Numbered from the stretch's first letter, positions 4,768 through 41,434 are shown. The stretch: DNA of 64,000 nt from a bacterium (GCA_965207065.1 OZ242260.1:3136001-3200000); one strand, 5' to 3'. The notes: generated by a model from the letters alone, not told the origin. Numbers and translations: made by a program.

Positions 4768-4769
4768 AA

Positions 4770-16556: not shown

Positions 16557-16564
16557 TCACCCCG

Positions 16565-17163: not shown

Positions 17164-17538
17164 ATGGAAACCACCGTGGTGAACCTGAACGAATATGTGG
17201 CGCCCCAGTTCGGAGGCGGCTTGCTGGTGAGGATCGACCGCATGACGAAGTGGGGAAATCCCTTCCGTATCGGCGCCGACGGCGACCGCGACGAAGTCAT
17301 CGAGAAATACCGGCGATGGCTGTGGAAAAAAATCCGGCAGGAGGAGGTGAACCTCTACGAACTCGCCGACCTCCTCGGCTGCGAGCTCGGCTGCCACTGC
17401 CATCCCCTCCCGTGCCACGGCGACGTCCTCGCGCGCGCCGCCGAGTGGGCAGCCAAATATCTCGACGAGATGCCCAAAGAAGTGAAGCGGGACGATCTCG
17501 GCTACGCGCTGCCCCAATACAACCATCCCCTCGCTTGA
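17164..17538 (+). CDS. DUF4326 family protein
   Basis: RIDRMTKWGNPF, RDEVIEKYRRWL, LGCHCHPLPCHGDVL. Confidence 0.88.
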   Translation: METTVVNLNEYVAPQFGGGLLVRIDRMTKWGNPFRIGADGDRDEVIEKYRRWLWKKIRQEEVNLYELADLLGCELGCHCHPLPCHGDVLARAAEWAAKYLDEMPKEVKRDDLGYALPQYNHPLA

Positions 17539-17588
17539 GGACAACCGAACCAACGGCTGAAAAACCCAATCACTGAAAGGAGTGAACG

Positions 17589-18548
17589 ATGACTGCCACC
17601 GCGACTCACGACCACAAGGAGATGAACATGAACGAGCACAGCGAACACGAAGCGCAGAACGAATCCTTCACCGCCATGGTCTGCGAGCAGGCCGCCCTGT
17701 TCGGCGCCACGCCCGGGCCGGACGAGTTCGACAACCGCCCCGTGTGGGGCGAGGGCGAAGCCACCGCCGCCGTCATCAAGGCCTTCTGCGCACTCGCGGA
17801 AGCCGCACCCGACGGCACGCAGCTCGCGGATGAGCGGGCGAACCTCCTCTGGGGATTCGTCAACACCCTCGACGCCCAGACACAGCGGCTCGACCGCGCC
17901 GCCGACAAACTCATCCCCGGGGTCCGCGAACTGCAGCGCGAGCAGGACGGCTCCGAGATCCGCTCGCGCGAACTCGAACTCATGACCGACAGGGCCGAGA
18001 ATCTCACCGCCCGGCGCGATGCGTTCGAGGGGCTCCGTGACGCCGCCGCAGAGGCCTACCGCGCGGAGACCGGCGAGGTATGGCGGCCGAGGCGAGGCTC
18101 CCACGTCTCCCAGACCGGCAAGCTGACTTCCGCCGTCATCGAGGCCCGCGACTTCCAGCGCGCCAGAAAGGACCGCGAGAGCACCGCCCACCTCCCCCAG
18201 GGAACCCTCGTCGCCGTCGCGGGCGGCAAGGAGGCGAGCGACGCCGGCAAAATCATCGCGCATCTCGACAAGGTCAAGGCCAAGTACGCCGACGTCGTCC
18301 TCGTCCACGGCGGCGGCCCCGGTGCTGAGAAGATAGCGGCGGGATGGGCCGAGCGGAACGGCGTCCACCAGGTCGTCTGCAAGCCCGACTGGGACGCCCA
18401 CGGCAGGGCCGCTCCCTTCCGCAGGAACGACGAACTCCTCGCACTCCTGCCCAAGGGCGTGGTCGCGTTCCCCGGGTCGGGCATCACCGACAACCTCGTC
18501 GACAAGGCCCGCACCCTCGGCATCCCCGTCCAGAAAATCGCCGCCTGA
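17589..18548 (+). CDS. DUF2493 / YspA-like SLOG domain protein
   Basis: C-terminal VAVAGG, LVHGG..GAEKIA, PDWDAHGRAAPFRRND, VAFPGSGIT. Confidence 0.88.
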   Translation: MTATATHDHKEMNMNEHSEHEAQNESFTAMVCEQAALFGATPGPDEFDNRPVWGEGEATAAVIKAFCALAEAAPDGTQLADERANLLWGFVNTLDAQTQRLDRAADKLIPGVRELQREQDGSEIRSRELELMTDRAENLTARRDAFEGLRDAAAEAYRAETGEVWRPRRGSHVSQTGKLTSAVIEARDFQRARKDRESTAHLPQGTLVAVAGGKEASDAGKIIAHLDKVKAKYADVVLVHGGGPGAEKIAAGWAERNGVHQVVCKPDWDAHGRAAPFRRNDELLALLPKGVVAFPGSGITDNLVDKARTLGIPVQKIAA

Positions 18549-18859
18549 CGTGAACGCTCCACGGGTCGCGTCGCCGCCCGGCGGCGCGGCCCGTCGCCTC
18601 TCTCCTCGTTCACTCCACCGCACCTCTCCTGATTGCCCCGCTCGTCTTCACCCGCTCACTCGCCGCGGCGGCTCCCGCTCGCCATTCTCTCCGGCGAAAA
18701 TTCCCTCGACTCGCGTTCCCAAGAATCCCTGCGCTAGCCGCCCTTCGGCGTTTCGTTCAGTACACCCGACGCAGCGGGCTGCACCGATTGCTGAGTCTGC
18801 GAAATACCGCGTTCCCCTGCGCCCTGCTGTTATGATTCATCCCCTAGCGCATCCTTGTC

Positions 18860-19060
18860 GTGCCGGTAAAAGTGCGTCGCATTTGCGACGAACCTCGATC
18901 TGGACAACAATATCAATAGGTTAGAGGGAGGTCTGATGCGCTTTTACGGTGCAGGTTCTCCGCCAGATACCAATTGCGTCGCAGACCGGGGTGCGCGTGG
19001 ATATGATCCCTCCTTGCAAGCGTCGCAAATGCGACGCAAGACACAGATGCGCAAGGCCAT
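18860..19060. promoter_or_regulatory. Candidate oriT / relaxosome-protein binding region
   Basis: Non-coding. CGTCGCATTTGCGACG (18875-18890), its exact reverse complement (19021-19036) and a half site at 18974-18983. Lies between the leading-region genes and the RHH gene. Confidence 0.45.
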
Positions 19061-19189: not shown

Positions 19190-19531
19190 ATGGGAAAAAC
19201 GATCAACAAGCACATCCGCGTCGACGAAGATCACTGGAAACGAATTGAAAATGCCGCTCATGAGCGGGGGATTTCCCCGAGCCGGTTCATGATCTCGGCG
19301 GCGCTCGAGGCGATCAAGGGACAGGAATGGCCGCGAACTGAGGCGGAAATCCATCTGTTGCGCTCGGCGATGTTCACCGCACAGGCCATCATCCGCGACA
19401 TGGAGAGGGAAGGACGAGAGGAGGAGATCGAACAAATCAGTCGGACTATCTCCGAAGTCGCGCCGGAATTGCCACGCAAATCGAGGAAGGACCCGCAAGA
19501 GCGGACGAATACGGGGAGCGGTAACCCGTGA
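19190..19531 (+). CDS. Ribbon-helix-helix protein, probable relaxosome accessory or regulator
   Basis: KTINKHIRVDEDHWKRIENAAHERGISPSRFMISAALEAI RHH pattern. Alternative start at 19151. Confidence 0.65.
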   Translation: MGKTINKHIRVDEDHWKRIENAAHERGISPSRFMISAALEAIKGQEWPRTEAEIHLLRSAMFTAQAIIRDMEREGREEEIEQISRTISEVAPELPRKSRKDPQERTNTGSGNP

Positions 19532-19610
19532 GTCGATTTCCCCGATCCAGATGTTTAAGCTGAGTCAAGCTACACATATTGATGAAGATAAGATCATGAG
19601 GACGGAATTT

Positions 19611-26000: not shown

Positions 26001-29000
26001 TCACGAGGCTAGGGAAATGGAAATCGCGCGAGCACCTCGGCGGTTGAAAGCGAGCGAGCATTTTCCTCGTGCTCTGGTAGACAACTTATCCCACTCACTA
26101 GGGTCACTGTCTGCGCGGGATGCAAAGATAATTTTTGGAAATGGATACAATTTTAGAAATGCATAACCCTCTTCTTTGCGTTCAACGCGACAATCATACA
26201 TGATTGTGATGCCATCTCGTTCAGCAATGGCAGCTGCCTGTGTTCTGAATCGGCCCGGTGCTTTGTCATGAAGAGCTGTAAACAACACGCCCGCTTTGTC
26301 ATACTGGCCTTGAAGAAATAACTCACGAGCATACCAGAATTGGGCTTCGAAATTGTTGTCACCTTTGGTGAAACCCCGTCTTAGATGATCAATTGCTGCG
26401 TCGTTTTCGCCAGAAGCGATGAGGACACGGCCCATCTCGAGATGTGCTAACTTACTGGAGGGGTTAACCTCTAGGCAGGTTTTCAATACACGCTTACAAT
26501 TCTCCACATCTCCTGATTCTTGGTACATACGAGACAACCAGACAGCGAGCCAATCTTGCCTTGGATTAAGATTGAAAGCGCGCTCAAGAGCTGTCTTCGC
26601 TCGATCAGTCTGAGCGATACATTCTCTAAAGGTTGCCTCTGCAGCCAACAATTGAGAGCTTTCTGGGAAAATTTGAAGGCCGCGTTGGATCACAGTTTCA
26701 GTTTCTTTCGCAGCTTTGACGAAGTCGTTAGGAGGTTTTGTATTGTCAGACACAATAAGTGAGTTTGACAGTTCCTTGAACTCATCAATAGCGAGGCGAG
26801 CGCGCGTATATAGGTCGTACTCGCTGGGCTGGCGAATATTTCCACCGAGTTTTTCACGAGTGAACCGTCTTAAGCTTCGCTTCCTTAGTGGGTCATCTGT
26901 ATCATTGGCCATTCGGCGTGCAATTTCTGCTTGGGTATGTTGAATACTACGACTAGTTGAGTTTAGCTTAAATGCGTGTGTGGCCGCTTCTTCAGCTTGC
27001 ACAAGCGATCCGCCACCATGCTGTATCTCAAAAACGGCTCTTTGATGCCAAACGAAAGAGTCGTTAGGCATAGTTTCTTGCGCACGGTCATAGAACAGTC
27101 GCCCGAGTTCGATGCTCGGAAACATGTCGGCAATGCCCCTTCCTTTAATCAATCGAGAGAAAGTCTCAAGGTCTGACGAGTAATCAATGTTCATGGCTTC
27201 AATTAGTCTCGCGAGAAGATCAAACTTGTCTTCTGGGCTGGGCAACATCTGGTTGAAGACTATCTCGGCGACATGTTGATGGCGACTACGGTAGTAAACG
27301 TCACGTCTATGGTTGTCTTTGACGACATGCACGACATTTTCTAAGGGCTGGATCAATTCTTCTTGAAATTCCTCAAACCTAATCCCAGCAGCACGTGAAA
27401 TGAGTCCAACTCGTACGGGTGCATCGAATTGATGGAGGGCGCAAATATCAAGATATAGGTTACGGGCAGCCGCTGGTTCTATGCGTCGGAATTCGTCAAC
27501 GATTATTTCCTCGAAAGGAACTCCTAGAGTCGCTTCATGGAGAGCGACTAATAGCTGACGTTCTGCCCCTTCGATGAATTTTCTGGTCCGATCCTCTGGG
27601 GAGAGATTTTTAAGTAGACCGAGAGCATTGTGGTGTTCTAATAGGTTGAGAAGTGCTTGAATCTCCCGTTCGCTTAGATAACGGACAGGAAACTCTTGGT
27701 GTAAAAATCGTTCGAGATGCTCACAATAGATGTTCCACTCATTGTCTCTCTCGGCCCCAACAATGGTGAGCGGGATGGACTGAGATCGTGAGCTGTCAAG
27801 TAATTTCCGCAGTTCATCTCGGACGAGTGCAACACGATCGACAAATAGAAATATGCGTTTGCCCGTTAGATGATGAATTTCAGCAAGTGGTTCTATGCGC
27901 AATCCAGCCGGAATTTCATTGAATAGAACAAGGTTGTCGTAAGTAACACCTGCTTCCCAAGCGATGCGTTTGAGCGAGACACTCTTGCCATTGCCCCCTG
28001 GCCCTTTCAACATAAAAAATTCAGCTGTATCGCGTTCCTCTTCGGATAGAAGAACAGCGTCAACTAGTACCGAGTCAGAAAACGAACGGTGGGCATCCAA
28101 ATTTTGAAGTATGCAGCCCCAGCCATTGTCGTATCCATGGTAGAACTCACTAGGATTTTGACTAAGAGCTGTCAGTCCTGAGTGAACATGCGTGGTATCG
28201 GTGTCGAGATAACTTTTTAGAGACAACGATTCTGAAGGTTGCGGGATGCGGTAGTGTTTACGGATAGATAGCTCCCCACCACCAATATTTACAGGAATCG
28301 CTCTCGCAAAGTCAGGAACTGCTTGGTCAATTGTCCTTAGGAAATCCTCGAAGGTAGTTTCAACTGCAAACACACGGAGGTTTGCCCAGTATCGCTTTTC
28401 GAAGTCGCTAATTTTCGGAGATAAATAATAGTAAGGTGGCCTATCGATGTCAGAGTCAGTGAGGTCGAACAATAGTTCTTGAATATGTGGATCGGAAATC
28501 GAATAGCCCGAAAAAATGATTGGATATTCAAATCCCAGATCACGAAACCGATTGTAAAGACGAGTTCTTTTCTTCCCGTAACTTGCGTATTGCTCATTGC
28601 CGAGTATTAGTGGGATTTCCAAATCCGCATAGGATTCGATACAACCATGTAGCTTATAGAAACCGACGGGATTTGTTTCCTTATTAAGCCTTGAGTCAAA
28701 GTTGTCACCATCTTTTACTGATTTGACTAGGGTTTGCTGCGATGCTGGCACGCTTGTGTAGGCTCTTTCGATAATGAGATCGAAATTTGTGGTAGCAATG
28801 GCGCGCCACTGGAATGTAGGAATTAACAAATGAAAGTCTGCGGGTTCAAATGGCATGAATAGTTCGGAAATATACCTTTGGAATTCGGTCAGTCCTACTT
28901 CGTTGGCTGCCATAGCTGCTACGGCGTTGAGTGGTTTTTCCATCAGTTCATCGTTCAAAAATTTCTTACAGAGCCGGTAACGAAGTTCGTCGCCTTGCGG

Positions 29001-29111
29001 AATCTGATCTCCATCAGGATGTTTGGCTTTCAGGCTTGCACCCGCACCAAGAAAAAGCACGGTACGTTGCTCTCTAACTGCGTCAATCAGGGATGGAGGA
29101 ATGTCGACCAC
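26001..29111 (-). CDS. SIR2-like NADase + P-loop NTPase + TPR + C-terminal OB/cold-shock-like protein (Avs-like defence)
   Basis: VLFLGAGAS, TTNFD, YKLHG, GYSISD (SIR2_2). GPGGNGKS and FLFVD (Walker A/B). Helical TPR-like repeats. C-terminal EEGYAFLK..LAFNRRGARA. Confidence 0.85.
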   Translation of the reverse strand: MVDIPPSLIDAVREQRTVLFLGAGASLKAKHPDGDQIPQGDELRYRLCKKFLNDELMEKPLNAVAAMAANEVGLTEFQRYISELFMPFEPADFHLLIPTFQWRAIATTNFDLIIERAYTSVPASQQTLVKSVKDGDNFDSRLNKETNPVGFYKLHGCIESYADLEIPLILGNEQYASYGKKRTRLYNRFRDLGFEYPIIFSGYSISDPHIQELLFDLTDSDIDRPPYYYLSPKISDFEKRYWANLRVFAVETTFEDFLRTIDQAVPDFARAIPVNIGGGELSIRKHYRIPQPSESLSLKSYLDTDTTHVHSGLTALSQNPSEFYHGYDNGWGCILQNLDAHRSFSDSVLVDAVLLSEEERDTAEFFMLKGPGGNGKSVSLKRIAWEAGVTYDNLVLFNEIPAGLRIEPLAEIHHLTGKRIFLFVDRVALVRDELRKLLDSSRSQSIPLTIVGAERDNEWNIYCEHLERFLHQEFPVRYLSEREIQALLNLLEHHNALGLLKNLSPEDRTRKFIEGAERQLLVALHEATLGVPFEEIIVDEFRRIEPAAARNLYLDICALHQFDAPVRVGLISRAAGIRFEEFQEELIQPLENVVHVVKDNHRRDVYYRSRHQHVAEIVFNQMLPSPEDKFDLLARLIEAMNIDYSSDLETFSRLIKGRGIADMFPSIELGRLFYDRAQETMPNDSFVWHQRAVFEIQHGGGSLVQAEEAATHAFKLNSTSRSIQHTQAEIARRMANDTDDPLRKRSLRRFTREKLGGNIRQPSEYDLYTRARLAIDEFKELSNSLIVSDNTKPPNDFVKAAKETETVIQRGLQIFPESSQLLAAEATFRECIAQTDRAKTALERAFNLNPRQDWLAVWLSRMYQESGDVENCKRVLKTCLEVNPSSKLAHLEMGRVLIASGENDAAIDHLRRGFTKGDNNFEAQFWYARELFLQGQYDKAGVLFTALHDKAPGRFRTQAAAIAERDGITIMYDCRVERKEEGYAFLKLYPFPKIIFASRADSDPSEWDKLSTRARGKCSLAFNRRGARAISISLAS

Positions 29112-29700
29112 TTTTTTCCTTTCTTTAAGTAAATTACTACCAAAAGTAGTTCAATTTGTGCCTTCTCCTCACCCCCGCTTCCACGTCACGAAAACCAGCC
29201 ACCACGTCTCTCTCACCGCGTTCTCCAGATTGGGCCGCATGGCAACGCTACTAGGCGTACCGTAGGGGCGGCTTTCTCCCAGGCATCCGTGGCCGGGATG
29301 GCGGGGTCTTCCATGTCGTAGAGCGCGATGATACGGCGCGCGCTCGTTTTCGTTTCACTGTGTTACCGTCTCCGCTGTCGTCGTTTTGCCATTCTCCACC
29401 ATACTGGCACATGTTCTTTATAATGAAAACAGAAAAGCTCTAGGACCGAGGGGTTGCCTTTATTCAGTGTCTCATAATTCCTTTCTTCATTCGCCACAGA
29501 CGCGAATCGAGCACTTGCATGGTGTCCTATCCGGTGATTCCTGATCCGACGTTGGATAGCCGGACTCTAGAGAAGCGCTGCACGATAGCCCTACAGAAAT
29601 AAGCGATACCAATTTACTACAGTGTGATGTTGCCGGGAGGGGAGGAGTCCATCTCATCGCTTACCGACAGATACGCTCTAGGATACGCTGGAGTTGTAAC

Positions 29701-29845
29701 TCGTCCGCTTTCGATTTGATTACTTCTTAAAGCAAGCAAATCCTACACGAAACTCGCAAAATACAAATACCCGCAATACTTTCAATAAACTATATAGATT
29801 CCCCGCTCGACGGATATCCCCCACTGTCACTAAACGGGCGAAAAA
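29701..29845 (+). repeat. Cargo-boundary repeat, copy A
   Basis: Gapless alignment to 38442-38581, about 104/140 identical by hand count. Confidence 0.85.
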
Positions 29846-29983
29846 CTCAACAGGGAACTTGAAGAACTCGACCTATACCTGAGTGGGTAGCTTGATTCGT
29901 TTTTCGAAGATGGTCTCAAGGCAAATCCCGGGTTCATTCAGGCGAAAGAAAGCGCACTTATCCTGTGTCAGGGGGTATTCACT

Positions 29984-30529
29984 TCATTCCTTTCCCGAGC
30001 GCCTGAATGACTCGCTCGGGGCACTGAAAACACCCAGAAAATCGGGACTGCTTCCATCTTTCTCGTGAGACCTGATGCTCAGGAACCCGCCTATCACAGG
30101 CGGATTGCCGTCAACATCCCTCAACCCGGAAAAAGAGCCAGCCCAGAATATTCTGGAAACAGATACGGCGTCGCGATCAGGATGCTTGACGCTTATCAAT
30201 TCGGGGTCTCTCGTGAGGAACGTTCCATCCGGATTGTACTGAACCGGCGTTATGTGAATTTCATAGTCTTTCGAATCAGCCTTGAGGGGCACGAAAGGAT
30301 TTCCCTACAACAGTTGTTCATATGCGCTTTTCAGGTGAAGTCTTTGTATGGTGATGTCGCCGACGCATCCCATGCAGCTGCTGAGCGTGCCGGCTTCGAA
30401 GTCGGCCTCGATCATCACGTATGCGGCAAATTCTTCCTGGGAAGTATTCCCCTTGTCTTCACCCCAATCATCTCCGTAACGGTACCGGAACAGGCCACCC
30501 ACCGGGCCGTCATAGGACATTGTCCCCAC
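29984..30529 (-). pseudogene. Fragment of a TbpB-like beta-barrel lipoprotein with an internal stop
   Basis: GTMSYDGPVGG..IEADFEAGT..(TAG 30305-30307, frame continues)..WAGSFSG..VIGGF..FLGVFSA. No 5' part is visible. Confidence 0.55.
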
Positions 30530-30764
30530 CTTCGAGCCTCTCCGCCACCGCGTGAGCCGCCAAAACGCCCGTTTCCAACACCGGGTTTTTCAACAGCCCC
30601 CTTTATGCAAGAGTTGGTTCGTGGTGTGGCGGACGGGCCGATACCAGAGATTGAGGATACGTATCCCGTCGCTGGCCGGCTTTCGTGAGTCATAAGGCAA
30701 AGACAGAAACTACCTCAGGCCAACGCTGACGTCGCCCCCTTCTTAATATTCCCTTAGAAATTGC

Positions 30765-30830
30765 GAAAAATTTTACCAAATCTCCCCATATATAGGGAAG
30801 CGCAGAAACGTGCAATTTTCTATACTTTAA
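30765..30830 (+). promoter_or_regulatory. Duplicated operator/promoter-like sequence, copy 1
   Basis: AAAAATTT..ATCTCCCCATATATAGGGAAGCGCAGA..ATTTTCTATA, similar to 33365-33430. Near-palindrome TCCCCATATATAGGGA. Confidence 0.55.
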
Positions 30831-32150
30831 TTATTGTCAGATTGTTTGGACTCGCAGAATTGAAATGGACCGAAACGATTGCACCGGACGACATAACAGG
30901 TGATTTTGTGTTTCTTATCCTAGGTGGAATCTGCATACTATTGCGTAGCGTTGGGCGAAGCTGCCTAATTGTGGAGGGCTCCCTTTCATACGCGCGTATC
31001 GTGTGGCGGAAGAAATCAGAGTACGGCGCGTTAGTATGCATGGGAGCACATCGACTATGATGGTGGATGAAGGCGGAAGAGCCGTAAATAGTAGGTGGTC
31101 AGATGAAATTTTAGAAGGATATATCACAATCAGGACTCAGGCGATGCGGAAGAGTTCCCCAATCCGCGTTTTGCTCGCCGCTTTATACACCTCCATGAAT
31201 TTTTTTACAGTTTCGTTGCGAAACCCTGATTCAGCACTTACCCAGTTGCGCAATCCGCATGGCGAAGCGTTGGTCATCGGCAAAAAGCACTACAGCCGCC
31301 GAATTATTCCCGACGTTTCGTTCGCTTGCCAAACTACGATGCTTTTCGGCTGTATGTGGAAAACGATCTCGGCTTTCATCCGAAAAACATCAATAAACAT
31401 CGAGAAGCGAGCGCAGTTGCTCTGCACTTTCGGTCGAAATCAAGGCAAGGTGAGCGATCTTCTGGTGAGAATTCTCCCGGACAGTAATCAGAAAGTTGTT
31501 CTCTACAAGCCAGGTCATGGGACAGCGAGCTTGAGAGACGGAAACGGCCGCCTCCTTCCGGCGGATATCTCTCCTCGCGAGGCGCAGGAAGAGGGATTGC
31601 CGCTCGAACTTCTACATTCTGCACCAGGGGATCTCTCGAACACAAAAAGCTTACAGCTGAACCAGAGCGTATGTTTCTCGGGGGCGGGTGATGAAGGCCG
31701 ACTCGTGCACAGTGCCAGTCATGTGATTGTGCGCCCGGCATTGCCAAAGGGTCTGGCGGGAAAGGTGTCGGCGGCCGGACCGGATTGCCGGGATGCAACC
31801 GCGTTGTCGGCTTACATATGGAGTCGTTCCGCTGTAGGGAGCGTAATTCTTCCGTATGAGCGTCGGCATAGCGAAGTGAGTTGCCACCTGCCGTCGATGC
31901 GCACGTTTCAAGATATTCAATTTTCGGTGGCGCCCTTCGTGACCGCTTCCGGAGCTATACTTGTCGAGTCCCGGCGGCGTGCGCATCACGGCGCCCATGT
32001 CGCCTGGCGGCATATGCAACAGTTTGCTCTGGCTTCGGCGAGCTCGGGGTCCATGATCGCAAGGGGGCATATGGTCAATAAAAGAGCGCCCTCGCCGCTC
32101 GATACGATGGGATACGGACTGGCCGGGCTTCCCCAGGGGAGGATGCGAGC

Positions 32151-33317
32151 ATGACAAAACGGGAGGCGTACGAGCGCATTCTGGCATCGTTGCACGAGGC
32201 GGCGCTGGACGATACCCGCTGGTCGAATGTCTCGAAGCTGCTCGACGATACCCTCGGCGTGTACGGCAACACTATTGGGATTGGCGACATACACTCCGGG
32301 GAGGACATCGATTACTACTACACGGGGATGTTCTTCCACGGACAACGGGACCTCGACTTAGAGCGCGAGTACTTCGACGTGTACTACCCCCGGGACGAAC
32401 GGGTCCCCCTCGTGCGGCAACTCCCCGACGGCCAATCGGCCCATATTTCCGATCTCTACACCAAAGAGGAGTTACGGACCTCCGTTGTATACAATGAATT
32501 TTTATACCGTGCGCACGCCCAGAACTGCATCAGCTATCGCCTCGACGGACCCATGGGCTCATCCATCGCCTGGTTTATCCACGACCCCCTCGTAAGTGAC
32601 GACTGGTCGTCCGCCCAACTCGACTTGATCCGGCGTCTTCTGCCCCATATACGCCAATATGTGCGCGTGCGTCAGTCGCTGGTGGGCGCCGGCGCGCTGG
32701 GCGCGTCCCTCACGGGATTGCTCGATTCGATCGGGGTGGGCGTCATCCAGCTCGACCGCCGTGGGCGGATTCTGGAAATGAATGACCACGCCCGGGATTT
32801 GTTGCGCTCCGGAGACGGTCTATTCGACGAGCGCGGGTTCCTGTTCGCCCGAAGGCCGGAGGACGACACGCAACTCCAGCGTTTGCTGAAGCGGGCGCTG
32901 CCGCCGCTCAGGTTCCAGGGCGTCAGCGGCTCGACGACGGTGAGGCGAGCATCGGACTTCCCGCTGATGCTGCACGTCAACCCGTTGGGCGGACAAGAGA
33001 GGGACTTCCGCGTATGGCCGGTCGCGGCGCTCGTGCTGGTCGTGGGCCTGGCGAGCCGTCTCCGCATCGATCCGGCCGTGGCCGAGTCGGTCCTCGGCTT
33101 GACGAAGATGCAGAGCCGGGTGGCGGTCCTGTTGGCCGAAGGCATGAGCGTCCCTGAAATCGCCGCGGCGATGGAACGAAAACCAAGCACGATCCGCACT
33201 CACGTGAAGAACATGTCGGCGAAGCACGGTCTCTCGCGCCAGGCCGAACTGGTGGGGCTTGTACTGCAATTGGCGAACGCTCCAGAAAGTCGAGACAGAA
33301 GGCGGAAGCAGTCCTAA
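32151..33317 (+). CDS. LuxR-family HTH transcriptional regulator with N-terminal sensor and PAS-like region
   Basis: C-terminal GLTKMQSRVAVLLAEGMSVPEIA..STIRTHVKN..KHGLSRQAELV. PAS-like GVIQLDRRGRILEMN. Confidence 0.9.
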   Translation: MTKREAYERILASLHEAALDDTRWSNVSKLLDDTLGVYGNTIGIGDIHSGEDIDYYYTGMFFHGQRDLDLEREYFDVYYPRDERVPLVRQLPDGQSAHISDLYTKEELRTSVVYNEFLYRAHAQNCISYRLDGPMGSSIAWFIHDPLVSDDWSSAQLDLIRRLLPHIRQYVRVRQSLVGAGALGASLTGLLDSIGVGVIQLDRRGRILEMNDHARDLLRSGDGLFDERGFLFARRPEDDTQLQRLLKRALPPLRFQGVSGSTTVRRASDFPLMLHVNPLGGQERDFRVWPVAALVLVVGLASRLRIDPAVAESVLGLTKMQSRVAVLLAEGMSVPEIAAAMERKPSTIRTHVKNMSAKHGLSRQAELVGLVLQLANAPESRDRRRKQS

Positions 33318-33364
33318 ATCAGCGCCGAGGTCGTTCGTTATTCCGAAAATTCCCTGGTTAATTG

Positions 33365-33430
33365 ATAAAAATTTCGCAATATCTCCCCATATCTGGGTAA
33401 GCGAAGACGTGTGTGAATTTTTTATAATTC
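33365..33430 (+). promoter_or_regulatory. Duplicated operator/promoter-like sequence, copy 2
   Basis: AAAAATTT..ATCTCCCCATATCTGGGTAAGCGAAGA..ATTTTTTATA, upstream of the lipoprotein gene. Confidence 0.55.
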
Positions 33431-33714
33431 AAACATCTCATCATCGACGTTGGAAAGGAGCCGGCGTGAAACTTCGTGGTGTTTGTGAGGATGTGCTCGC
33501 ACTCTTGGCGGTTTCAGGTATCAACGGATCCGAGGATTGCGGATTGCAGCAGACGGGAACAAAGCAGCCGTTAAAATATTTATCGTTTTCAAAAATTCGT
33601 TCTCGCTGCTGCGCCTCGTTGTCATGGCAGCCTTCTTGACGACCTACACCCGAGATCAGTTGCGATCAACAACCGTTAGCAATACTGGATATGACCTTTG
33701 ATTGGAGGTTTATA

Positions 33715-34518
33715 ATGAAAACAAGAAACATTATCTTGGTTATTTTCCTGTCCATGATTTTGTCGGCATGTTCCGGTTCATCGAATATGTCTGCTCCGGA
33801 GGAGCCGGCGATTGACCCCTCATCAGGTTTATATAAAGTCGTCGCTCTTTCCAATTCATTAAAAACGACTAATCTATATTTTAATGGTAATCAGATTCCG
33901 CTTGAAAGTTGCGGCGGGTCAATTTGTACTGCCGAGGGCGATATTAATATACCAGTCACATTGGCAGCGAGACGTCTTGCAGATCACGGCTTTGAAACAG
34001 AAGCGGAAATTGGCGGGGTTGAAATTGTCAGAACGGATATAGGTGATAACTGGGCGTTGCTCGGTGGATGGATGGATTATTCCGCATTCTTTGTCGTAAA
34101 AGATTTGTTTAGAAACGATAGTTTCTTGGTTTTTTCTCAATCTATAGGTCGGTTTTATTCGATTGACGATGCTCCTTTGCCCGTAGAAGGAAGTGCTTCT
34201 TATGAAGGCGGGATGGTAGGCACAAACATCATGACAACTGATCGCTATACAGGACAATCATCCTTGACTGCAAATTTCGGAGAAACCCCCACTATTGATA
34301 TTCATTTCACCAACGTTATGAACCTGAATACTGGTGTGGCTCACTCCGATATATCATATGAGGGTGCTCCAATAAGCGAAAGGAAGGGGATTTTTAGCCA
34401 ACCTTCAGACAGAAGTTATGTGAATGGTGAATTTATGGGACCGGATAACGAGGAAGTAGTCGGAGTATTTGAGCATGAAGACCTTGTCGGAGCATTTGGG
34501 GCCAAGCGCACGGAATAG
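33715..34518 (+). CDS. Surface lipoprotein with transferrin-binding-protein-like C-terminal beta-barrel
   Basis: Lipobox LSAC with Ser/Gly linker. GSASYEGGMVG, LTANFG, VNGEFMGPDNEEVVGVF..LVGAFGAKR. Confidence 0.85.
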   Translation: MKTRNIILVIFLSMILSACSGSSNMSAPEEPAIDPSSGLYKVVALSNSLKTTNLYFNGNQIPLESCGGSICTAEGDINIPVTLAARRLADHGFETEAEIGGVEIVRTDIGDNWALLGGWMDYSAFFVVKDLFRNDSFLVFSQSIGRFYSIDDAPLPVEGSASYEGGMVGTNIMTTDRYTGQSSLTANFGETPTIDIHFTNVMNLNTGVAHSDISYEGAPISERKGIFSQPSDRSYVNGEFMGPDNEEVVGVFEHEDLVGAFGAKRTE

Positions 34519-34880
34519 AGCGTGTCAGCGATAAATACCAAGTGTGGCCTTTAATTAATGCCACATTCTTAATTTTCACGACACAATTTGCGGGTGAATC
34601 CGCTACAGAATTATCAGACACATGAAATACTTCAAGATGTTTCGAGACAGCACGAGCAGCGACGTTGATTCTGATTGGCGGCGATCAATTGGAGTTACGG
34701 TCAAATCTGGTGTATGGCCATCCTGAATCCAGCGGCCCTCCCGCCCGTAACTTATTCATTCATCCATCGGCATCAACATCCACAAAGAAGGCAAAGAAAG
34801 CCGCTTACTTGCGAGCGCGCCGCGAAATCGATTTGCTTGAAAGCCCCGCACGACGTGTCCTACCACGGGAGATGCGCCTC

Positions 34881-36035
34881 ATGGAGTTGTTTTTCATAGC
34901 CTTGAAAAGAAAGAAAGCTCCAAGGTGGGCTTTCGTTCTGGCGTGTATCTGCATTGCGTTCATGCTCCCGAGTCCCCCCGCTCACGCCTTCATCGGAGTT
35001 CTCGAGCGTCGTCCCGTCTCATCCGTGGAGAGAGTCCACCGGGCCGTGTGGAAGATTGAAAATGTCGGGGAAGGATATTACGGAACCGCCTTCGCCATCA
35101 GCCGAAAAAACTTCCTGGCGGCCTTTCACACCTGGAACGGTCTTTTGAAAGAGGGAAGAACTCTGGGAGACATCCACCTCGTTCAAGAGGGAAACGGCCG
35201 GACTCACACCGTCTCCAGACTGCTCGCCGTTTCGGCCACCTACGATCTGGCTCTCTTCGAGATCAACGGGAGCGTGGAAGACTACCTGGCTCTGGCGAAG
35301 GGATTTACTCTCGGGCGAGGCGAGCGGCTCTACACTCTGGGCTACCTGGGTGGTGCTTTGTTCAAAGCCGTCCCGGAGTCAAGAGGAGGAGGCTACTATC
35401 AGGACGACTGGGTCTACGGCTTCGCGGCGAATCACGCCGATTTGCGGGGGATGAGCGGCGGACCCGTATTTGATTCGAAAGGGAAAGTGGTTGGGCTTCA
35501 GGCAACGGCTGGTACGAACATGCTATATGGCGTCAGGTCGAGACATTTGCATGGATTGCTCACCTATCGAGTGGGGATTTTGTGTCCGCGGCCTCGTGAA
35601 GCCAAGTCGTGCCTTCGTGCGGGGAAAAAGGACACCAGGAGAATAGCCGGGGCGGGAAACGCCGTTGCCCGGTACCAGTTGGGACACGGGGACAGCTACG
35701 TGAACGAAACCGATAGGGAGCGATTGGCGTCCATCGATCAGCTCAAAGCGTCCGCGCGAAACGGGTTCCCGTTTGCTATGAGAGCATTGGCGAATCTCAA
35801 GGTCCATGGCCAAAGAGGCCTGGAGAAAGACCTGGCATCGGCGGCTTCCTTGTATGAACGCGCGGCGGCGCGAGGCGAGCCCGCCGCCACGCATACGCTC
35901 ATACAGATGTACTATTACGGGATGGGAAAGGTCAAAGACGTGGACAAGGCCCTTGCGATGGCTCAAAAGGGGGTTGCCCGGGATTACGTTCCCATCGTGA
36001 AGTTCCTGAAAAAGATGCGAAGGGAGAATCCCTGA
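34881..36035 (+). CDS. Secreted trypsin-like serine protease with Sel1-like repeats
   Basis: Signal-like AHA. Catalytic triad AAFH / DLAL / GMSGGP. Sel1 repeats GLEKDLASAASLYERAA and YYYGMGKVKDVDKA. Start uncertain. Confidence 0.82.
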   Translation: MELFFIALKRKKAPRWAFVLACICIAFMLPSPPAHAFIGVLERRPVSSVERVHRAVWKIENVGEGYYGTAFAISRKNFLAAFHTWNGLLKEGRTLGDIHLVQEGNGRTHTVSRLLAVSATYDLALFEINGSVEDYLALAKGFTLGRGERLYTLGYLGGALFKAVPESRGGGYYQDDWVYGFAANHADLRGMSGGPVFDSKGKVVGLQATAGTNMLYGVRSRHLHGLLTYRVGILCPRPREAKSCLRAGKKDTRRIAGAGNAVARYQLGHGDSYVNETDRERLASIDQLKASARNGFPFAMRALANLKVHGQRGLEKDLASAASLYERAAARGEPAATHTLIQMYYYGMGKVKDVDKALAMAQKGVARDYVPIVKFLKKMRRENP

Positions 36036-36394
36036 TTGCGTGCGCGTTTTCCAGCAACGGTTTCAACAGCCGTCACAGGCTGCCGCCCATCATAGATGAT
36101 CACGGGTATGCGTCCCGTAACTTCTTGCTCGGAAGATCATCCTCTCTGTAATGAAGGCTGCTCTTCAGTCGCGCGCGGGCTTCGTCTTTGGACATGGGAC
36201 GGTGTAGCTGGATCAAATTCGAAGGCGCTGAAGCATGACCACAGGCAAGCCGCTTAAGGCCGGATATTCTAGGAAAATCCGACCCCGCCCCGCCTGGGTG
36301 CGCAGAAGTTGTAATTCGTCAGCTTTCGCTTTGATTACATGCTGTAGGTGGCGGATTGTGATCGAGATCGGGAGCCACACATATTTCCCAATGA

Positions 36395-36458
36395 GATCAA
36401 TGGGATAATGCAATTCCACTACCGCTGGAAATCCCCCACTGTCTGAAAACGGGCGAAA
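36395..36458 (+). repeat. Cargo-boundary repeat, copy C (core)
   Basis: TGGAAATCCCCCACTGTCTGAAAACGGGCGAAA (36426-36458) matches 38552-38584 at 31/33. Confidence 0.85.
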
Positions 36459-36685
36459 CATTCTCAACGAGTTCGCTATCCTGCTGGTCCACTTCAGGCC
36501 ATGAAATGCCGTACATCTGCAGGTCGTGATCGCTTCCTCTCCCGCGCGGCCACCGTTGATCATCTTCTGACTGCGACGAAACATGTTCCATCTTCCATGG
36601 ATGGTTCGCGCTGTATTTCCTTTTTAGAATCTTGAACAGCGGAAACCAGTCGGCGCCGGACCCCGACGCCTGGGATTTTGTAATT

Positions 36686-36713
36686 TGTCAGAAACTATTA
36701 TATATTTCTGACA
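36686..36713. promoter_or_regulatory. Inverted-repeat operator of the AbiE operon
   Basis: TGTCAGAAA-N10-TTTCTGACA directly upstream of the antitoxin RBS. Confidence 0.75.
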
Positions 36714-36728
36714 GAAAAGGGGTGTCTC

Positions 36729-37322
36729 ATGGAAAAACTGAGCGAAGCGATTCTGCATCACGCAAGAAACAGGCCCGAAGGCGTTCCGTTGAGCGCCAAG
36801 GGGTTGCTGCATCTCGGCAGCCGCGCCGCGGTCGATCAGGCCTTGTCGCGTCTTGCCCGTCGCGGTGACCTGCTTCGCGCGGGACGGGGCCTCTACCTCC
36901 TCCCAGTGAAGAGCCGGTTCGGCAGCCGGGCGCCCTCGCTCCAGAAGACGGTCGAGGCGCTGGCGGCCCAGCGCGGGGAGCGGATCGCTTCCAGCGGCGC
37001 CATGGCGGCGAATACGCTCGGCCTGACGACGCAGGTGCCGGTCAGGCCCGTCTTCCTGACCTCGGGACGCAGCCGTAAACTGAAACTCGGCCGTCAGGAG
37101 GTCGAATTGCGGCACGCGCCGCCATGGCAGCTCGTACTGAGTGGCCGCAAGGCGGGAGACGCCGTCCGGGCGCTCGCCTGGCTCGGACCGGAGAGGGCCG
37201 GGACGGCGCTCGATGTGATCGGGGGATCGCTGAGCCTCGAGGAACGCAGGGAGTTGGCCGATGTCAGTGCGCAAATGCCGGGATGGCTCGCGGGTCCGGT
37301 GAGTCGGTTGACGCATGGCTGA
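36729..37322 (+). CDS. AbiEi-like antitoxin (DUF6088-like wHTH)
   Basis: GSRAAVDQALSRL..LLRAGRGLY, AANTLGLTTQVP. Overlaps the toxin gene. Confidence 0.88.
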   Translation: MEKLSEAILHHARNRPEGVPLSAKGLLHLGSRAAVDQALSRLARRGDLLRAGRGLYLLPVKSRFGSRAPSLQKTVEALAAQRGERIASSGAMAANTLGLTTQVPVRPVFLTSGRSRKLKLGRQEVELRHAPPWQLVLSGRKAGDAVRALAWLGPERAGTALDVIGGSLSLEERRELADVSAQMPGWLAGPVSRLTHG

Positions 37323-38331
37323 GCGCTGGTTGGAACTCCAGCATGGTGATCGTCGGGAAGTGCTCGAAGTCGCCGCCGGCGCGTCCGGAAGGCCGGTGTA
37401 TCTGCTGGAAAAGGACATCTGGGTCGTCTGGGCCATCCAGACGCTCTTTGAAGCGCCCATAGGCGCGCCGCTCGTCTTCAAGGGCGGCACATCCCTGTCC
37501 AAGGCGTATCGCGCCATTGGGCGTTTTTCCGAGGATGTCGACCTGACCTATGACATCCGGGCGCTCGCACCCGACCTCGTCGCCGACAGCCCGGATGCTT
37601 TGCCGACAAGCCGGAGCCAGGAACAGCGATGGACGAGAGAGGTCCGCCGGCGTCTGGCCGCCTGGATGCATGACGAGGCCGTCCCGTTCCTGGAGAAGAG
37701 GCTGCATGCGGTAGAGACGGACGGCGGAATCAGGGTCGAGGATGGCGATCTCTTCATACGCTATTCGCCGCTGAGCGAGGGGACGGGCTATGTTCGACCG
37801 GAGGTGAAGCTGGAATTCGGCGCACGCGCCACGGGGGAGCCGAACTCGCCGATGCCGATCCGCTGCGACGCGGCTGACCATGTGCCGGATGTCGAATTCC
37901 CGACGGCGTTACCGCGGGTCATGCGGGCCGAACGCACCTTCTGGGAGAAGGCGACGGCCGCGCATGTCTACTGCTTGCAGGGGCGATTGCGGAGCGAGCG
38001 CTTCGCCCGGCACTGGTACGATCTCGCGCGGCTCAAGGACGCCGGCCTGGCGCGACGCGCTCTCGCAGACCGGGAAACCGCCAATGCCGTGGCGGCGCAC
38101 AAGGCCATGTTCTTTCGCGAAAAGGATGCGTCGGGAAACTGGATCGACTACGAAGCGGCCGTTACGGGCGGTCTGCAGCTTGTCCCAGCGGGAGACTCCT
38201 TGGCCGCACTGGCGGACGACTACGCTCGGATGGTTGAAGACCGGCTGCTGCTCGAGGAGGCCGAGCCGTTCAATGTCCTGATGGATACCTGTCGGGCAAT
38301 CGCGGAGCAGGCGAACCTGCTCGACTGCTAG
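37315..38331 (+). CDS. abiEii: AbiEii nucleotidyltransferase toxin (type IV TA)
   Basis: EKDIWV, FKGGTSLSKAY..RFSEDVDL, RTFWEK, RHWYDL. Confidence 0.92.
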   Translation: MAERWLELQHGDRREVLEVAAGASGRPVYLLEKDIWVVWAIQTLFEAPIGAPLVFKGGTSLSKAYRAIGRFSEDVDLTYDIRALAPDLVADSPDALPTSRSQEQRWTREVRRRLAAWMHDEAVPFLEKRLHAVETDGGIRVEDGDLFIRYSPLSEGTGYVRPEVKLEFGARATGEPNSPMPIRCDAADHVPDVEFPTALPRVMRAERTFWEKATAAHVYCLQGRLRSERFARHWYDLARLKDAGLARRALADRETANAVAAHKAMFFREKDASGNWIDYEAAVTGGLQLVPAGDSLAALADDYARMVEDRLLLEEAEPFNVLMDTCRAIAEQANLLDC

Positions 38332-38441
38332 ACGACCCACCCACTCTCGGGCAGCGTATCTATGATTCCTGCTCATGAGTAATCCATTTAGGCTGCACGG
38401 TGGCCAGGTAACAACCCGCCCGGACGCGCAGAAGTTAGAAT

Positions 38442-38586
38442 CCGCCCGCTTCCGGTTTGATTGCACCTTGAAGAAAGCGAATCCCCAACGAAACTCCCCA
38501 AAAACAAATACTCAAAATATTTTCAACAAACTACAAAGACTTCACGTCCGTTGGAAATCCCCCACCGTCTGAAAACGAGCGAAATA
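38442..38586 (+). repeat. Cargo-boundary repeat, copy B
   Basis: See copies A and C. Lies about 40 bp from the relaxase stop codon. Confidence 0.85.
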
Positions 38587-38626
38587 CGATTTTCCTACAG
38601 CTTGTAGATTTTCGATAGCTGATTTC

Positions 38627-41434
38627 CTACATTTCCATCGTGCGTGCAGAGCGGATCTTCTTCATCTCCTGCGTCCGCCGCTCCATGGATTGAGCCGCCT
38701 CGTTCGTTCTCCCAGCGTCCCTGGGTCTGTCTCCGAACGCTTCCAGGGCCGCGATACGCTCCCCCGTCGCGGCTTCGAGTCGCTCGCGCAGTGCGTTCGC
38801 ATCGTCGGTCACGAGTTCCGCCCGGTCGCGTGCGCGGCTGATCTCGACGTAGAGCGTCTTCTGGTTGGTGAGATTGGGATGGTTGGCCTCCATGGCGGCG
38901 ATGACGGTATCGACCGTCCGACCCTGGAAGGCGTGCACGGTCGAGGCCCAGGCGCGGTCGACGTGGCGAATCTGCGGGTCGGCGCCGGTCATGTCGAGTG
39001 CGCGCCCGTCCTCGAGACGGAAACTGACGCGGTCTCCCCTGACGCTCGTCACCTCCGCGGTCTGGCTGTTGACCAGGCCCAGGTCCTTGTCGTTACGGGT
39101 CCATCGGACCCGGTCGCCGCTTCGAAACTCCATCTGCTCGACCCGGTAGACCTCGACCCCGCCGCTTCGCGCCGCGAGACGGCCCGGCTCCCAGCGGACT
39201 TCCCTTCCGTCTTTTCCTTCCAGCACGACCGCGCCGCCTTTGTGATCCACGCCCGTCACACGTAGTTCGTCTCCCTTTTCGACGCCGAGGCGCTTGTAGG
39301 GACGGTGGAAGGCGACCACGTCGCCGGGCGCGTAGTTCGCGGAGAGCGATTTCTCGGGGTTGGTGTAGCCGCGCGAGACGAGGCGTTCCGATTCCAGGGC
39401 CGGGCCGTGGACGACGCCGTCCCGGATAAGTCGCTCGCGGACGATGGCGTTGATTTTCTCGCGAATCGCATGGCTCGGCGCCATGAGGCCCGCCCGTTCT
39501 CGCGCCTCGGGCGACAGCGCTATCCAACGCGCGGCGGCGGCGCCCGCGAGGTTGTCGGGCTTGACTTCGGCCACGTTCGAGCCGAGTTTTTCGAAGGCGC
39601 GCTTGACGTCGCCTGCGAGGGTGGCCTCTACGGCGGCTTTGAGATCGGGGTCGCGCTGGCGCATGATCTCCTTCATCACCGCGGTCTTCATGCCCGCCGA
39701 CTGTAGCTGTGCGAATGGTTTGCCGGCGTCTACGGCGCCTAATTGTTTCGCATCGCCCACCAGCACGACCCGGGGCAGGCTTAAGGTCTCCGCGATGCGC
39801 AAGAGTTCGCGCATCTCGCGCGTCGATGCGAGGGAGCCCTCGTCCACCACGAGGGCGGTCTTGCCGTAGTCCGCGCGCATCTGCTTCCGGGCCTTCCTCG
39901 TAAGGCGGCCCTGGGCGACCCCGGCGTTTCGCGCCAGGAAACGCTGCAGCGTCTCGCTCGCTATGCCGGCTTCCGATTCGAGCGTCCTTGCGGCGGAGGC
40001 CGAAGGCGCAAGTCCCCGGACCTCGAAGCCGCGCTTCTCAAAAAGCGCGCGGGCGCGTCTCAGCATCGCGGTCTTTCCGGTTCCTGCGTAGCCCTGCACG
40101 CCGATGACGCGGTCTTTTTCTGAAAGAATCAACTTGACCGCATCGCGCTGGCCCGTTGTCAGCGGACCGTTTCGCAAGGACTTGTCCACGGCGCGTGGGC
40201 GCATGGCGGGCACGCCTCGACCGCATCCGGATTTCAGGAGGGCGATGGTCTCTCGCTCCTCGGCCACCGCCTTGTCCGTCGTGAGCATGTCCTTCCGGCT
40301 CGAAAGGTCCGCCGCGTGCAGGACGCTTGTATTTTCCAGTCTCGCCACCTCGCGCTCGGCGCCTGCCATCGACACCGCGCCCGGCCGCCAGGCGAGTGCG
40401 CCTGCGAGGAGGGCGGAACGGTCGAAGACCGCCTCTCGTTCCGCGAGGTGCGCCACGGCCCACTCCACGGCCTCGCGGGCGGGTTCCGCTTCCCTGGATG
40501 GAGCGCTCCTCGTCATCGCTTCGGCCGCCAGGGTCCCGGCGTCGAAGCCCAGGTCCTTCGCCTGCTTCTCCCAGGCGGCCGTCAAGGCCTCCTTGCCGAC
40601 TTCACGCTTGCGCGCCCTCGTCATGAGCGCCGCACGCTGGGCTGCGCGCTGGTTCTCGGCCGTCGCGCCGAGTCCCCGCTCGGCCATCGCCTTCTCGATC
40701 TCGACACGTCTTGTCGAGAACGCCTCGATCACGTCTCTCGGGACGCCCGCGACCTCGAAGCGCCCGTCGGCATGGGTCTTTTCGATACGATATCCGATGG
40801 CTCCGAGTTCTCTGGCGAGTTCGGTCCGGTACATCGCGCCCGTGAGCATCTTGTGCGCGTAGAGTTTCTCGTTGGACATCGTGCGCCACTTGCCGTCCGC
40901 ACCACGCACCATGTTGGCTACAACTGAGTGCGTGTGGATCATGGGGTCGAGGTTGCGCGACGTATCGTGCCGGAAGGTCGCGACCAGTGTTTTCTGGTCC
41001 CCCAAACGGACCATCTGTCCGGTCTTGGGCTCGCTCATCCTGGTCTCGGCGACGTTTCGATCGACCCAGGCGAGGGTGCGCGATACGGCCGCATCGTGCG
41101 CCCTGATTACGCGCGCGTCGCCGCCCACGAGAGCCAGGAGGGAGACGGATTTGGGCGCCGAGAGGGTGAGGTCGCGGCCGGGACGGTGGTGGAGTTCTCC
41201 GTCCTTGCCCCTTCGTCCGAGCCTTTGTCCCGAACCGTCGGGCACCACGCCTTCGAGCACCGCGCGGAATACGTCCGGGTCGACCGGACCCGAGAGGCCC
41301 AGGTCCTCAGCGCCCCTACCGCGCCAGGCGCTCGCCTCCCGGTGCGCCGGGTCGTCCTTCGCGTAGTAGCCGTCGCGCTCGTAGTAGGACGCCCCCTGCG
41401 CGGGAGCGGCGACGGCGCCGATCGATGCGACCAT
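38627..41434 (-). CDS. traI: MOBF (TrwC/TraI-type) relaxase-helicase
   Basis: SYYERDGYY, DLTLSAPKSVS, HDTSRNLDPMIHTH, QGYAGTGKT, VDEGS, TVHAFQG. Confidence 0.96.
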   Translation of the reverse strand: MVASIGAVAAPAQGASYYERDGYYAKDDPAHREASAWRGRGAEDLGLSGPVDPDVFRAVLEGVVPDGSGQRLGRRGKDGELHHRPGRDLTLSAPKSVSLLALVGGDARVIRAHDAAVSRTLAWVDRNVAETRMSEPKTGQMVRLGDQKTLVATFRHDTSRNLDPMIHTHSVVANMVRGADGKWRTMSNEKLYAHKMLTGAMYRTELARELGAIGYRIEKTHADGRFEVAGVPRDVIEAFSTRRVEIEKAMAERGLGATAENQRAAQRAALMTRARKREVGKEALTAAWEKQAKDLGFDAGTLAAEAMTRSAPSREAEPAREAVEWAVAHLAEREAVFDRSALLAGALAWRPGAVSMAGAEREVARLENTSVLHAADLSSRKDMLTTDKAVAEERETIALLKSGCGRGVPAMRPRAVDKSLRNGPLTTGQRDAVKLILSEKDRVIGVQGYAGTGKTAMLRRARALFEKRGFEVRGLAPSASAARTLESEAGIASETLQRFLARNAGVAQGRLTRKARKQMRADYGKTALVVDEGSLASTREMRELLRIAETLSLPRVVLVGDAKQLGAVDAGKPFAQLQSAGMKTAVMKEIMRQRDPDLKAAVEATLAGDVKRAFEKLGSNVAEVKPDNLAGAAAARWIALSPEARERAGLMAPSHAIREKINAIVRERLIRDGVVHGPALESERLVSRGYTNPEKSLSANYAPGDVVAFHRPYKRLGVEKGDELRVTGVDHKGGAVVLEGKDGREVRWEPGRLAARSGGVEVYRVEQMEFRSGDRVRWTRNDKDLGLVNSQTAEVTSVRGDRVSFRLEDGRALDMTGADPQIRHVDRAWASTVHAFQGRTVDTVIAAMEANHPNLTNQKTLYVEISRARDRAELVTDDANALRERLEAATGERIAALEAFGDRPRDAGRTNEAAQSMERRTQEMKKIRSARTMEM

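Follow-up and report, generated by a model that had tools for sequence, protein, structure and literature searches.

Comparative evidence that an intergenic repeat family marks recombination junctions in the accessory DNA of a bacterial genus

Here, we describe a 64,000-nt stretch of a bacterial genome (GCA_965207065.1 OZ242260.1:3136001-3200000), hereafter the window, in which three direct copies of a non-coding repeat, named A, B, and C, part the accessory genes into blocks. Coordinates without a prefix are those of the window, and "genome" coordinates are those of the 4.48-Mb host genome (G000). To the left of copy A lie a SIR2-STAND-TPR gene (26001-29111, minus strand) and GmrSD. Copies A and B enclose a block with LuxR-type, lipoprotein, and protease genes, copies B and C enclose an AbiE gene pair, and to the right of copy C lie a TrwC relaxase, a TrwB coupling protein, and TraG_N. 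The original prediction read the three copies as a recombination site of the att (attachment) or res type through which modules are stacked. Our comparison with related genomes gives good support to the view that the copies act as recombination junctions; that they are att-type sites served by an enzyme supplied in trans has, in our estimate, a probability of about 0.5. The features on which the argument relies are the following.

29642-29848, plus strand: copy A, arm and core (profile E 8.8e-53; repeat search)
29695-29723, plus strand: promoter-like left block of copy A (TGTAAC, 17 nt, GATTAC), function putative
29811-29843, plus strand: core of copy A, with the putative exchange window at 29829-29832, between GTCA+CT and AAAC
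36255-36465, plus strand: copy B (profile E 1.1e-45)
36426-36458, plus strand: core of copy B, with the putative exchange window at 36444-36447
38396-38592, plus strand: copy C (profile E 1.4e-53)
38552-38584, plus strand: core of copy C, with the putative exchange window at 38570-38573
29849-36254, plus strand: A-B block, with an insertion sequence (IS) end fragment (30536-30606), open reading frames (ORFs) of 383 aa and 388 aa (LuxR-type helix-turn-helix), a TbpB-like lipoprotein, and a trypsin-like protease with Sel1
36447-38572, plus strand: putative AbiE cassette, with a leader, a promoter-like site (36678-36706), an AbiEi-like gene (DUF6088, 36729-37322), AbiEii (37315-38331), and the arm of copy C (Pfam, promoter scan)
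38627-41434, minus strand: TrwC-type relaxase-helicase, the less likely catalyst (Pfam TrwC 1e-82)
18755-18783, minus strand: backbone-borne rival candidate for an origin of transfer (oriT), consisting of a hairpin and, 9 nt further on, GTGT/A (covariation among paralogs)

The alignment figures given in the original prediction were all reproduced. Positions 29701-29840 and 38442-38581 are identical at 104 of 140 ungapped positions, while random 140-mers of the window compared with copy A average 33.9. The 33-bp cores of copies B and C agree at 31 of 33 positions, those of A and B at 28/33, and those of A and C at 26/33; in each copy a TCAA motif starts 29 bp before the core (at 29782, 36397, and 38523). 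A repeat search of the window returned a single three-copy family of 166 nt (29681-29846, 36296-36461, and 38422-38587). The family profile, built from 83 copies that also served for all base counts below, matched the window three times (E 9e-53, 1e-45, and 1e-53 for A, B, and C, respectively), the next best match having an E-value of 0.35. The unit extends about 40-60 bp to the left of 29701, where the prediction had placed its start. The three copies are co-oriented, and the Pfam scan detected no recombinase or transfer domains between them, as in the cis-mobilizable elements (CIMEs) discussed below. Copy C abuts the stop codon of the relaxase gene, as had been claimed, and the same arrangement was found at two further relaxase genes (genome 1320 kb and a locus in the relative G013). 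A fourth, weaker, co-oriented copy lies at genome 3203107-3203279 (E 5e-19), about 3.1 kb past the window end, beyond the Slam cassette that heads the transfer operon.

The three copies belong to a family that extends over the genus, so that what had been described as a three-copy feature of one element is not restricted to it. The profile matched G000 42 times at E<=0.01; 19 of these matches are full length and 25 have the core. A BLAST search of 22 other genomes of the same genus and 18 genomes of other genera, families, and classes found the family in 15 of the former and in none of the latter; genomes of about 3 Mb within the genus are without it, and no plasmid-borne relatives were found with blastn. 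The copies are intergenic, mostly clustered, and located in accessory DNA of low G+C content (about 45%, versus 68% for the genome), at more than 12 loci with unrelated flanks, and 13 out of 18 neighboring pairs within 20 kb are co-oriented (counted from the genome listing). They are mutually 60-80% alike, and only one pair in G000 exceeds 90% identity. The unit measures about 200-250 bp, with a fuzzy left edge and a sharp right edge: in 546 colinear pairs among 49 copies, the quartiles of the right alignment end fall at -3/-1/+1 around the base after GGGCGAAA, which bears out the claim that similarity drops just after the core.

To compare the flanks, we used 85 copies with 2.3 kb on either side, from 15 genomes (G000 and 14 relatives). 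Twelve pairs of copies share the left flank only and 14 share the right flank only, at 80-98% identity, while no pair shares both. Thus, synteny ends at every copy that could be compared. In the relative G013, a copy was also found at a relaxase 3' end, a kind of position that the prediction had named as support; of the outcomes named as speaking against it, a decayed coding or IS fragment is improbable (see below), and in relatives synteny always breaks at the copies. The junction role given in the prediction is supported by the 26 flank-sharing pairs and by a fixed breakpoint.

The position of this breakpoint could be narrowed to a few bases. In six independent right-flank groups (L088/L128, L099/L106, L103/L132, L086/L095/L118, L131/L138/L122/L139, and L090/L105), the sequences become near-identical at AA(A/G)CGGGCG, and where these last 12 bases have rare variants, the variants travel with the right flank, while the remainder of the copy is only paralog-like (0.55-0.82 identity). 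A 671-aa gene and its copy of the repeat form a block common to five genomes at 93-97% identity. Its versions in G000, G022, and G008 agree as far as ...CCCCCACTGTCT and part at the base that follows; in G003, the right end of another copy of the repeat lies directly against the left end of the block. The place at which ancestry switches is thus a few bases inside the 33-bp core, between ...CCCCCACYGTCT and AAACGGGCGAAA; it lies between GTCT and AAAC, and the two bases in between (S, W) follow neither side. The base counts show two conserved blocks, GGAAATCCCCCAC and AAACGGGCGAAA, which are not inverted repeats and which flank a 7-base center, YGYCTSW, with four polymorphic positions. All six right-flank groups and one left-flank group break within a single 5-base window. 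Homologous recombination alone is disfavored, because its breakpoints would scatter over the 60-bp conserved core, and such scatter was not seen. In the window, from AAAC of its core onward, copy B has a sequence in common with genome 790160-790358, and the core and right flank of copy C are common to genome 1320212 and to the G013 relaxase locus.

The AbiE block was also found outside this genome, in contigs of X4 and X5, which are sequencing runs (metagenomes) of two other studies whose contigs we compared with the window. There it is about 99.9% identical, a sign of recent movement, with 1-3 differing letters per contig, and has about ten times the depth of the protease gene on its left. 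The contigs begin at 36450 in X4 and 36443 in X5, and their alignments end at 38583 and 38584, respectively. Contig ends at repeats are expected for technical reasons; the step in depth nevertheless shows that the block sits in another context in these samples. Of the original claim that the copies bound modules, this half stands: the AbiE block between B and C travels as a unit.

We propose, with the probability of about 0.5 given above, that each copy is an att-type site for site-specific recombination that delimits cassettes without an integrase, and that a recombinase acting in trans, most likely an integrase pair, works on it. Read from left to right on the plus strand, the site of about 200 bp would consist of an arm, a left half-site, a center, and a right half-site. 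The arm of about 150 bp would carry a promoter-like block at its start and the IHF-like (integration host factor) motif TCAAYAAACTA 29 bp before the core. The left half-site would be GGAAATCCCCCAC and the right half-site AAACGGGCGAAA, and strands would be exchanged in the short, partly variable center YGYCTSW. A cassette would then comprise one right half-site, the cargo, and the next arm with its left half-site, and the AbiE pair (36447-38572) would be one such integrase-less cassette. By recombining two co-oriented copies, the recombinase would excise, insert, or replace cassettes, so that cargo could pile up as arrays inside and beside the conjugative elements of the genus. The comparison itself shows the family, its distribution, the breaks of synteny, where the breakpoint lies, and the co-occurrence with the integrases. 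That an enzyme makes the breaks, which enzyme it is, that the left block has promoter activity, and that IHF binds the arm are what we infer from the sequences.

The most likely enzyme appears to be the pair of tandem, arm-binding tyrosine integrases that accompanies every element of the family. About ten such pairs are present in G000, and each sister element, conjugative or mobilizable, has one at its end. The nearest pair (genome 3128236-3130585; L141:4237-6595) lies 5.4-7.8 kb left of the window start; its members are 59% identical, and both have Arm-DNA-bind_3 and a catalytic domain. The pair occurs in 18 out of 23 genomes of the genus and in all 16 that carry the repeat, while the seven repeat-free genomes comprise one with the pair, one with a single weak match, and five with no match. 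Large genomes of the genus have 20-26 integrase matches each. A two-subunit integrase that binds arms would suit these sites because of their long arm with an IHF-like motif and their two unlike half-sites, which two different subunits would fit. The prediction had noted that no cognate recombinase is adjacent. This is literally true, and no recombinase regularly adjoins the copies in G000 or among the neighbor genes scanned in the relatives (32 of 60 loci and 102 of 201 ORFs); candidates are nonetheless nearby, namely the tandem integrases and the TrwC-type relaxase 40 bp from copy C. An element of the recombinase-in-trio (RIT) type in the window, with three tyrosine recombinases (4770-8268), was considered as the source of the enzyme and rejected, since it is present in only 3 out of 23 genomes. 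RIT copies with identical scores occur at least four times in G000 (genome 33665, 904721, 1152996, and 2325539), and two of the copies sit where relaxase paralogs are interrupted (homology gap 40086/40087).

Several observations weigh against an att-type site served by these integrases. The integrase-bearing elements appear to end at a different sequence; among eight of them, one has a significant 14-bp direct repeat, which is unlike the core. By our reading of the listings, only one or two of the ten integrase pairs in G000 have a copy facing them. A core-like attB was absent from five repeat-free genomes of the genus (at <=3 mismatches in 28 bases). The integrases and repeats may co-occur only because both follow the amount of mobile DNA in a genome, and the genomes, being related, do not count as independent. 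Some junctions lie elsewhere in the copy: L139/L140 and the AbiE contig of X5 break at the right edge, and L082/L112 at the left boundary, while L133, L134, and L119 carry replaced right halves. The center bases S and W follow neither flank consistently, and an identical right flank is preceded by differing centers, an unexpected feature if the recombinase requires its overlaps to be identical. The half-sites lack the symmetry of inverted repeats, and the copies have no covarying hairpin. The only recent duplicate of the A-B block (30600-34679, 97.9% identical to genome 1320514-1324595) starts at the IS-end fragment and stops at the protease start rather than at A and B, which speaks against a strict form of the claim that the copies bound the LuxR and lipoprotein module.

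Neither an excised circle nor an empty site nor an insertion polymorphism was found in the contigs of X4 and X5 or in the flanks of the relatives, which likewise speaks against the proposed sites. Around genome 194686 and genome 181484, each compared with five relatives, flanks on one side were without a counterpart, and no empty site could be defined. A contig of X4 that joins 38398 to 36433, going back 1966, was considered as a circle and set aside; it was read as a different array, because its short side has only 47 letters and the other part is 92% alike. A joint in X5 that leads from 38546 to 29825 across 18 extra letters represents one more member of the repeat family.

The arm is the part of the repeat on which an alternative without any enzyme is built. 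Within its approximately 150 bp, the TCAAYAAACTA motif, which we take to be IHF-like from its consensus, is conserved at T1 in 77, C2 in 74, A3 in 81, and A4 in 75 of the 83 copies. The left block has the layout TTGAWK-17 nt-GATTAC, with GATTAC exact in 62/83 copies, and we read it as a putative promoter-type element. On this ground the copies might be passive, a portable promoter with its leader, and the junctions might result from ordinary homologous recombination or gene conversion with no dedicated enzyme; we consider this unlikely. It is favored by the presence of the same TTGAWK-17-GATTAC layout directly before the ribosome-binding site of all ten integrase pairs in G000, and by five partial copies that have the left and middle parts and no core (genome 43794, 61722, 108345, 121739, and 4476738). 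These lie in sense orientation about 110-200 nt before lipoprotein operons and look like the conserved promoter and leader of a paralogous operon family. The genes behind them come as pairs of about 570 aa each, the first with a lipoprotein-type signal, LAGC.

Gene conversion between copies is also shown by copy C and genome 181509-181677, which are 96% alike over exactly 169 bp, that is, over the repeat alone, and the replaced right halves mentioned above point the same way. However, 12 of the 19 full copies face the 3' end of a convergent gene, and seven lie between convergent genes (read from the genome listing). Driving the next gene thus cannot be their whole role. A sigma-70 scan that accepts a second hexamer only if its last base is T found no promoter common to A, B, and C. 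The confinement of the breaks to a 5-base window also argues against homologous recombination, for which copies that are 60-80% alike are a poor substrate.

A second alternative, to which we give somewhat less credence than to passive copies, is that these are nic-type, oriT-like sites cut by a TrwC-family relaxase, the cassette being the strand between two nicks. Initiation at one copy and termination at the next would release or transfer this strand, and the strand-transfer activity known for the relaxase would re-insert it into another copy. The relaxase gene 40 bp from copy C encodes an N-terminal domain whose closest relative among solved structures is R388 TrwC (2e-62), with the tyrosine pairs and the histidine motif kept, and copies abut relaxase 3' ends at the window, at genome 1320 kb, and in G013. 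PMC3264647 describes two activities of TrwC on oriT, namely recombination between two copies of it and integration of incoming DNA into one copy, with TrwA and IHF as helpers. The long conserved region 5' of the breakpoint is oriT-like. The eight bases before the breakpoint, CACTGTCT, match six of the eight before the R388 nick, TATTGTCT, as listed in Table 1 of PMC4814116. According to the relevant part of PMC4176350, GTCT or GTGT immediately 5' of the cleavage is the rule for MOBF relaxases, and the repeat conforms to it, with G45 in 75, C47 in 79, and T48 in 73 of 83 copies directly before the breakpoint. The same part of that source states that R388 needs a purine at position +1 of nic and that some sites of HUH relaxases are without the repeat. 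In the repeat, GTCT is followed by G in 44, by C in 32, and by A in 7 of the 83 copies, so that 32/83 have a C where R388 needs a purine. A nic site of the MOBF type has its recognition hairpin about 8 nt to the 5' side, and no covarying hairpin was found in the copies. Moreover, 3' of the breakpoint the copies have twelve strongly conserved bases for which a relaxase has no need, and the relaxase occurs in 13 of the 16 repeat-bearing genomes versus 16/16 for the integrases.

The window also has a better candidate for oriT, on the other strand. Positions 18755-18783, at the conserved end of the element backbone, are likely to be an oriT of the MOBF type; they lie downstream of the relaxase gene, from which the variable cargo separates them. 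The 5-bp hairpin covaries (GCAGC/GCTGC, GCACC/GGTGC, GCATC/GATGC) among paralogs at genome 23789, 79856, 1187009, 1545666, 1939034, 2319848, and 4452168, and the eight bases of the candidate match the repeat core at only three positions. Genes of the leading region enter first in conjugation. The candidate adjoins SSB, DUF4326, and YAcAr genes, which are on the plus strand and point at the variable region. Their direction predicts a minus T-strand, while the copies are on the plus strand, so that their polarity is opposite to that expected of an oriT. When window 42-60800 is compared with a sister conjugative element at genome 2319848-2365170, the blocks agree and their order differs (in the sister, the relaxase and type IV secretion genes, then window 42-18776). 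The ends of the sister element are the equivalents of 18776 and 38630, the borders of the variable region, and this complete element has no full copy of the family. An ORF of 119 aa before the coupling protein, a candidate for an accessory relaxosome component, had no Pfam match. At the start of the variable region, the palindrome GTCGCA-3 nt-TGCGAC occurs twice (18874-18890 and 19022-19040), followed by a multi-copy segment (19208-19548; 13 places in the genome, 73-88% identity) that overlaps a 126-aa ORF without a Pfam match.

Least probable, despite being dispersed, AT-rich, short, and multi-copy, is that the copies are miniature inverted-repeat transposable elements or IS fragments (among the 26 flank-sharing pairs, none has both flanks preserved, which leaves no case of simple insertion polymorphism; the left end is unsharp, with no terminal inverted repeat; transposases nearby are few, with no Y1 (IS200-type) found and a Y2 (IS91-type) search that lacked a working control), decayed coding sequence (gap lengths vary across the aligned copies, multiples of three being uncounted, and no ORF is shared), or small RNA genes (no Rfam match, and fold z-scores of -0.5 on the plus and -1.1 on the minus strand for 16 copies against mononucleotide shuffles). 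A known RNA family had been tried as a candidate and was rejected, with 0 Rfam 15 matches in the window at gathering score, as was an att site derived from a tRNA: the window has no tRNA, and the 64-71-bp repeat at 30536-30606 is no tRNA either.

The genes found near copies include defense genes (AbiE, Druantia DruA, reverse transcriptase, Mrr, Schlafen-Fic, Cas3, and NERD), as well as eukaryote-like repeat proteins, autotransporters, a Tle1-like lipase, transporters, and a few IS transposases. In the A-B block, 30536-30606 is a 64-71-bp end fragment of a multi-copy IS-like element (genome 963276, 444455, 1981842, 2085080, and 104132), and a 207-aa ORF that spans it (30065-30688) may be spurious. 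To the left of the window lies a CBASS-type gene pair (L141:8561-11374; genome 3132560-3135373), with a SMODS/DncV-like nucleotidyltransferase with AGS_C followed by a SAVED-2TM effector.

If the junctions are run by an enzyme, they would explain how uncultured symbionts assemble and exchange defense systems (AbiE, SIR2-STAND, GmrSD, and the Druantia type) together with eukaryote-like surface proteins. The genes would move as small portable units, none of which would need its own recombinase, and there would be a defined 33-bp target, a mapped exchange point, and two candidate enzymes. If homologous recombination alone is at work, the family would be a lineage-specific repeat with a promoter-like block, ordinary yet useful for annotation. 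The family profile is a practical marker of cassette boundaries when annotating these genomes.

Of the known systems with which the copies can be compared, the pdif modules put forward in the original prediction do not appear to be a suitable model, judged by both orientation and sequence. In both cases short sites bound small accessory modules with no recombinase encoded beside them. The pdif sites of Acinetobacter plasmids are 28-bp XerC/XerD sites in alternating orientation, while the sites described here are about 200 bp long, in direct orientation, and without a dif-like layout. With oriT recombination by R388 TrwC and with islands that carry only an oriT (iOriT), the copies have in common a TrwC-like relaxase adjoining a copy, TGTCT at the breakpoint, a conserved 5' side with an IHF-like motif, and defense genes nearby. 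Unlike such sites, the copies are without a hairpin, point the wrong way with respect to the leading-region genes, and are conserved 3' of the breakpoint as well, and a better oriT candidate lies elsewhere in the window. The part of the iOriT preprint that we consulted gives at most two oriT per element (R6K, ICEclc) and no arrays (bioRxiv 10.64898/2026.01.13.699239).

Integron cassettes resemble the units described here in having the recombination site at the 3' end of the cassette and in forming co-oriented arrays, and in both the last few bases of the site lie beyond the switch of ancestry and are those of the next cassette. Unlike attC sites, the copies have neither a folded structure nor a GTTRRRY core, and the best score for an integron integrase (TIGR02249) was 83.7 bits versus a cut-off of 265. 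The cassettes are also larger, 2-10 kb with promoter-like sites of their own, and there is no single platform with attI and Pc.

The best reading is that the copies are a variant of the arrays formed by tandem accretion with CIMEs, the closest known kind. Tandem accretion of integrative conjugative elements and integrative mobilizable elements with CIMEs has ICESt1/ICESt3 as its paradigm, as outlined in the part of PMC5704250 drawn on here. In such arrays, as here, co-oriented att-type sites part units without integrase or transfer genes of their own, the units can be reshuffled and captured, and they are located with related conjugative elements. CIME arrays grow at one chromosomal attB, usually a gene end that forms the core, whereas here there are more than 12 arrays per genome and no common target gene. 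The sites here are also about 200 bp long and 60-80% alike, no core is present in element-free genomes, and the integrase-bearing elements seem to end elsewhere. These differences lead us to raise, tentatively and as less probable than the att-type reading as such, a cassette system that spans the chromosome and is distinct from both an integron and an array at a single attB. Each cassette would carry a site of 200 bp whose core is asymmetric and whose promoter-like block points outward, and a heteromeric pair of arm-binding integrases (or, less likely, the TrwC relaxase as an integrase) from the conjugative elements would act in trans, shuffling genes for defense and host interaction among dozens of sites per genome and between elements.

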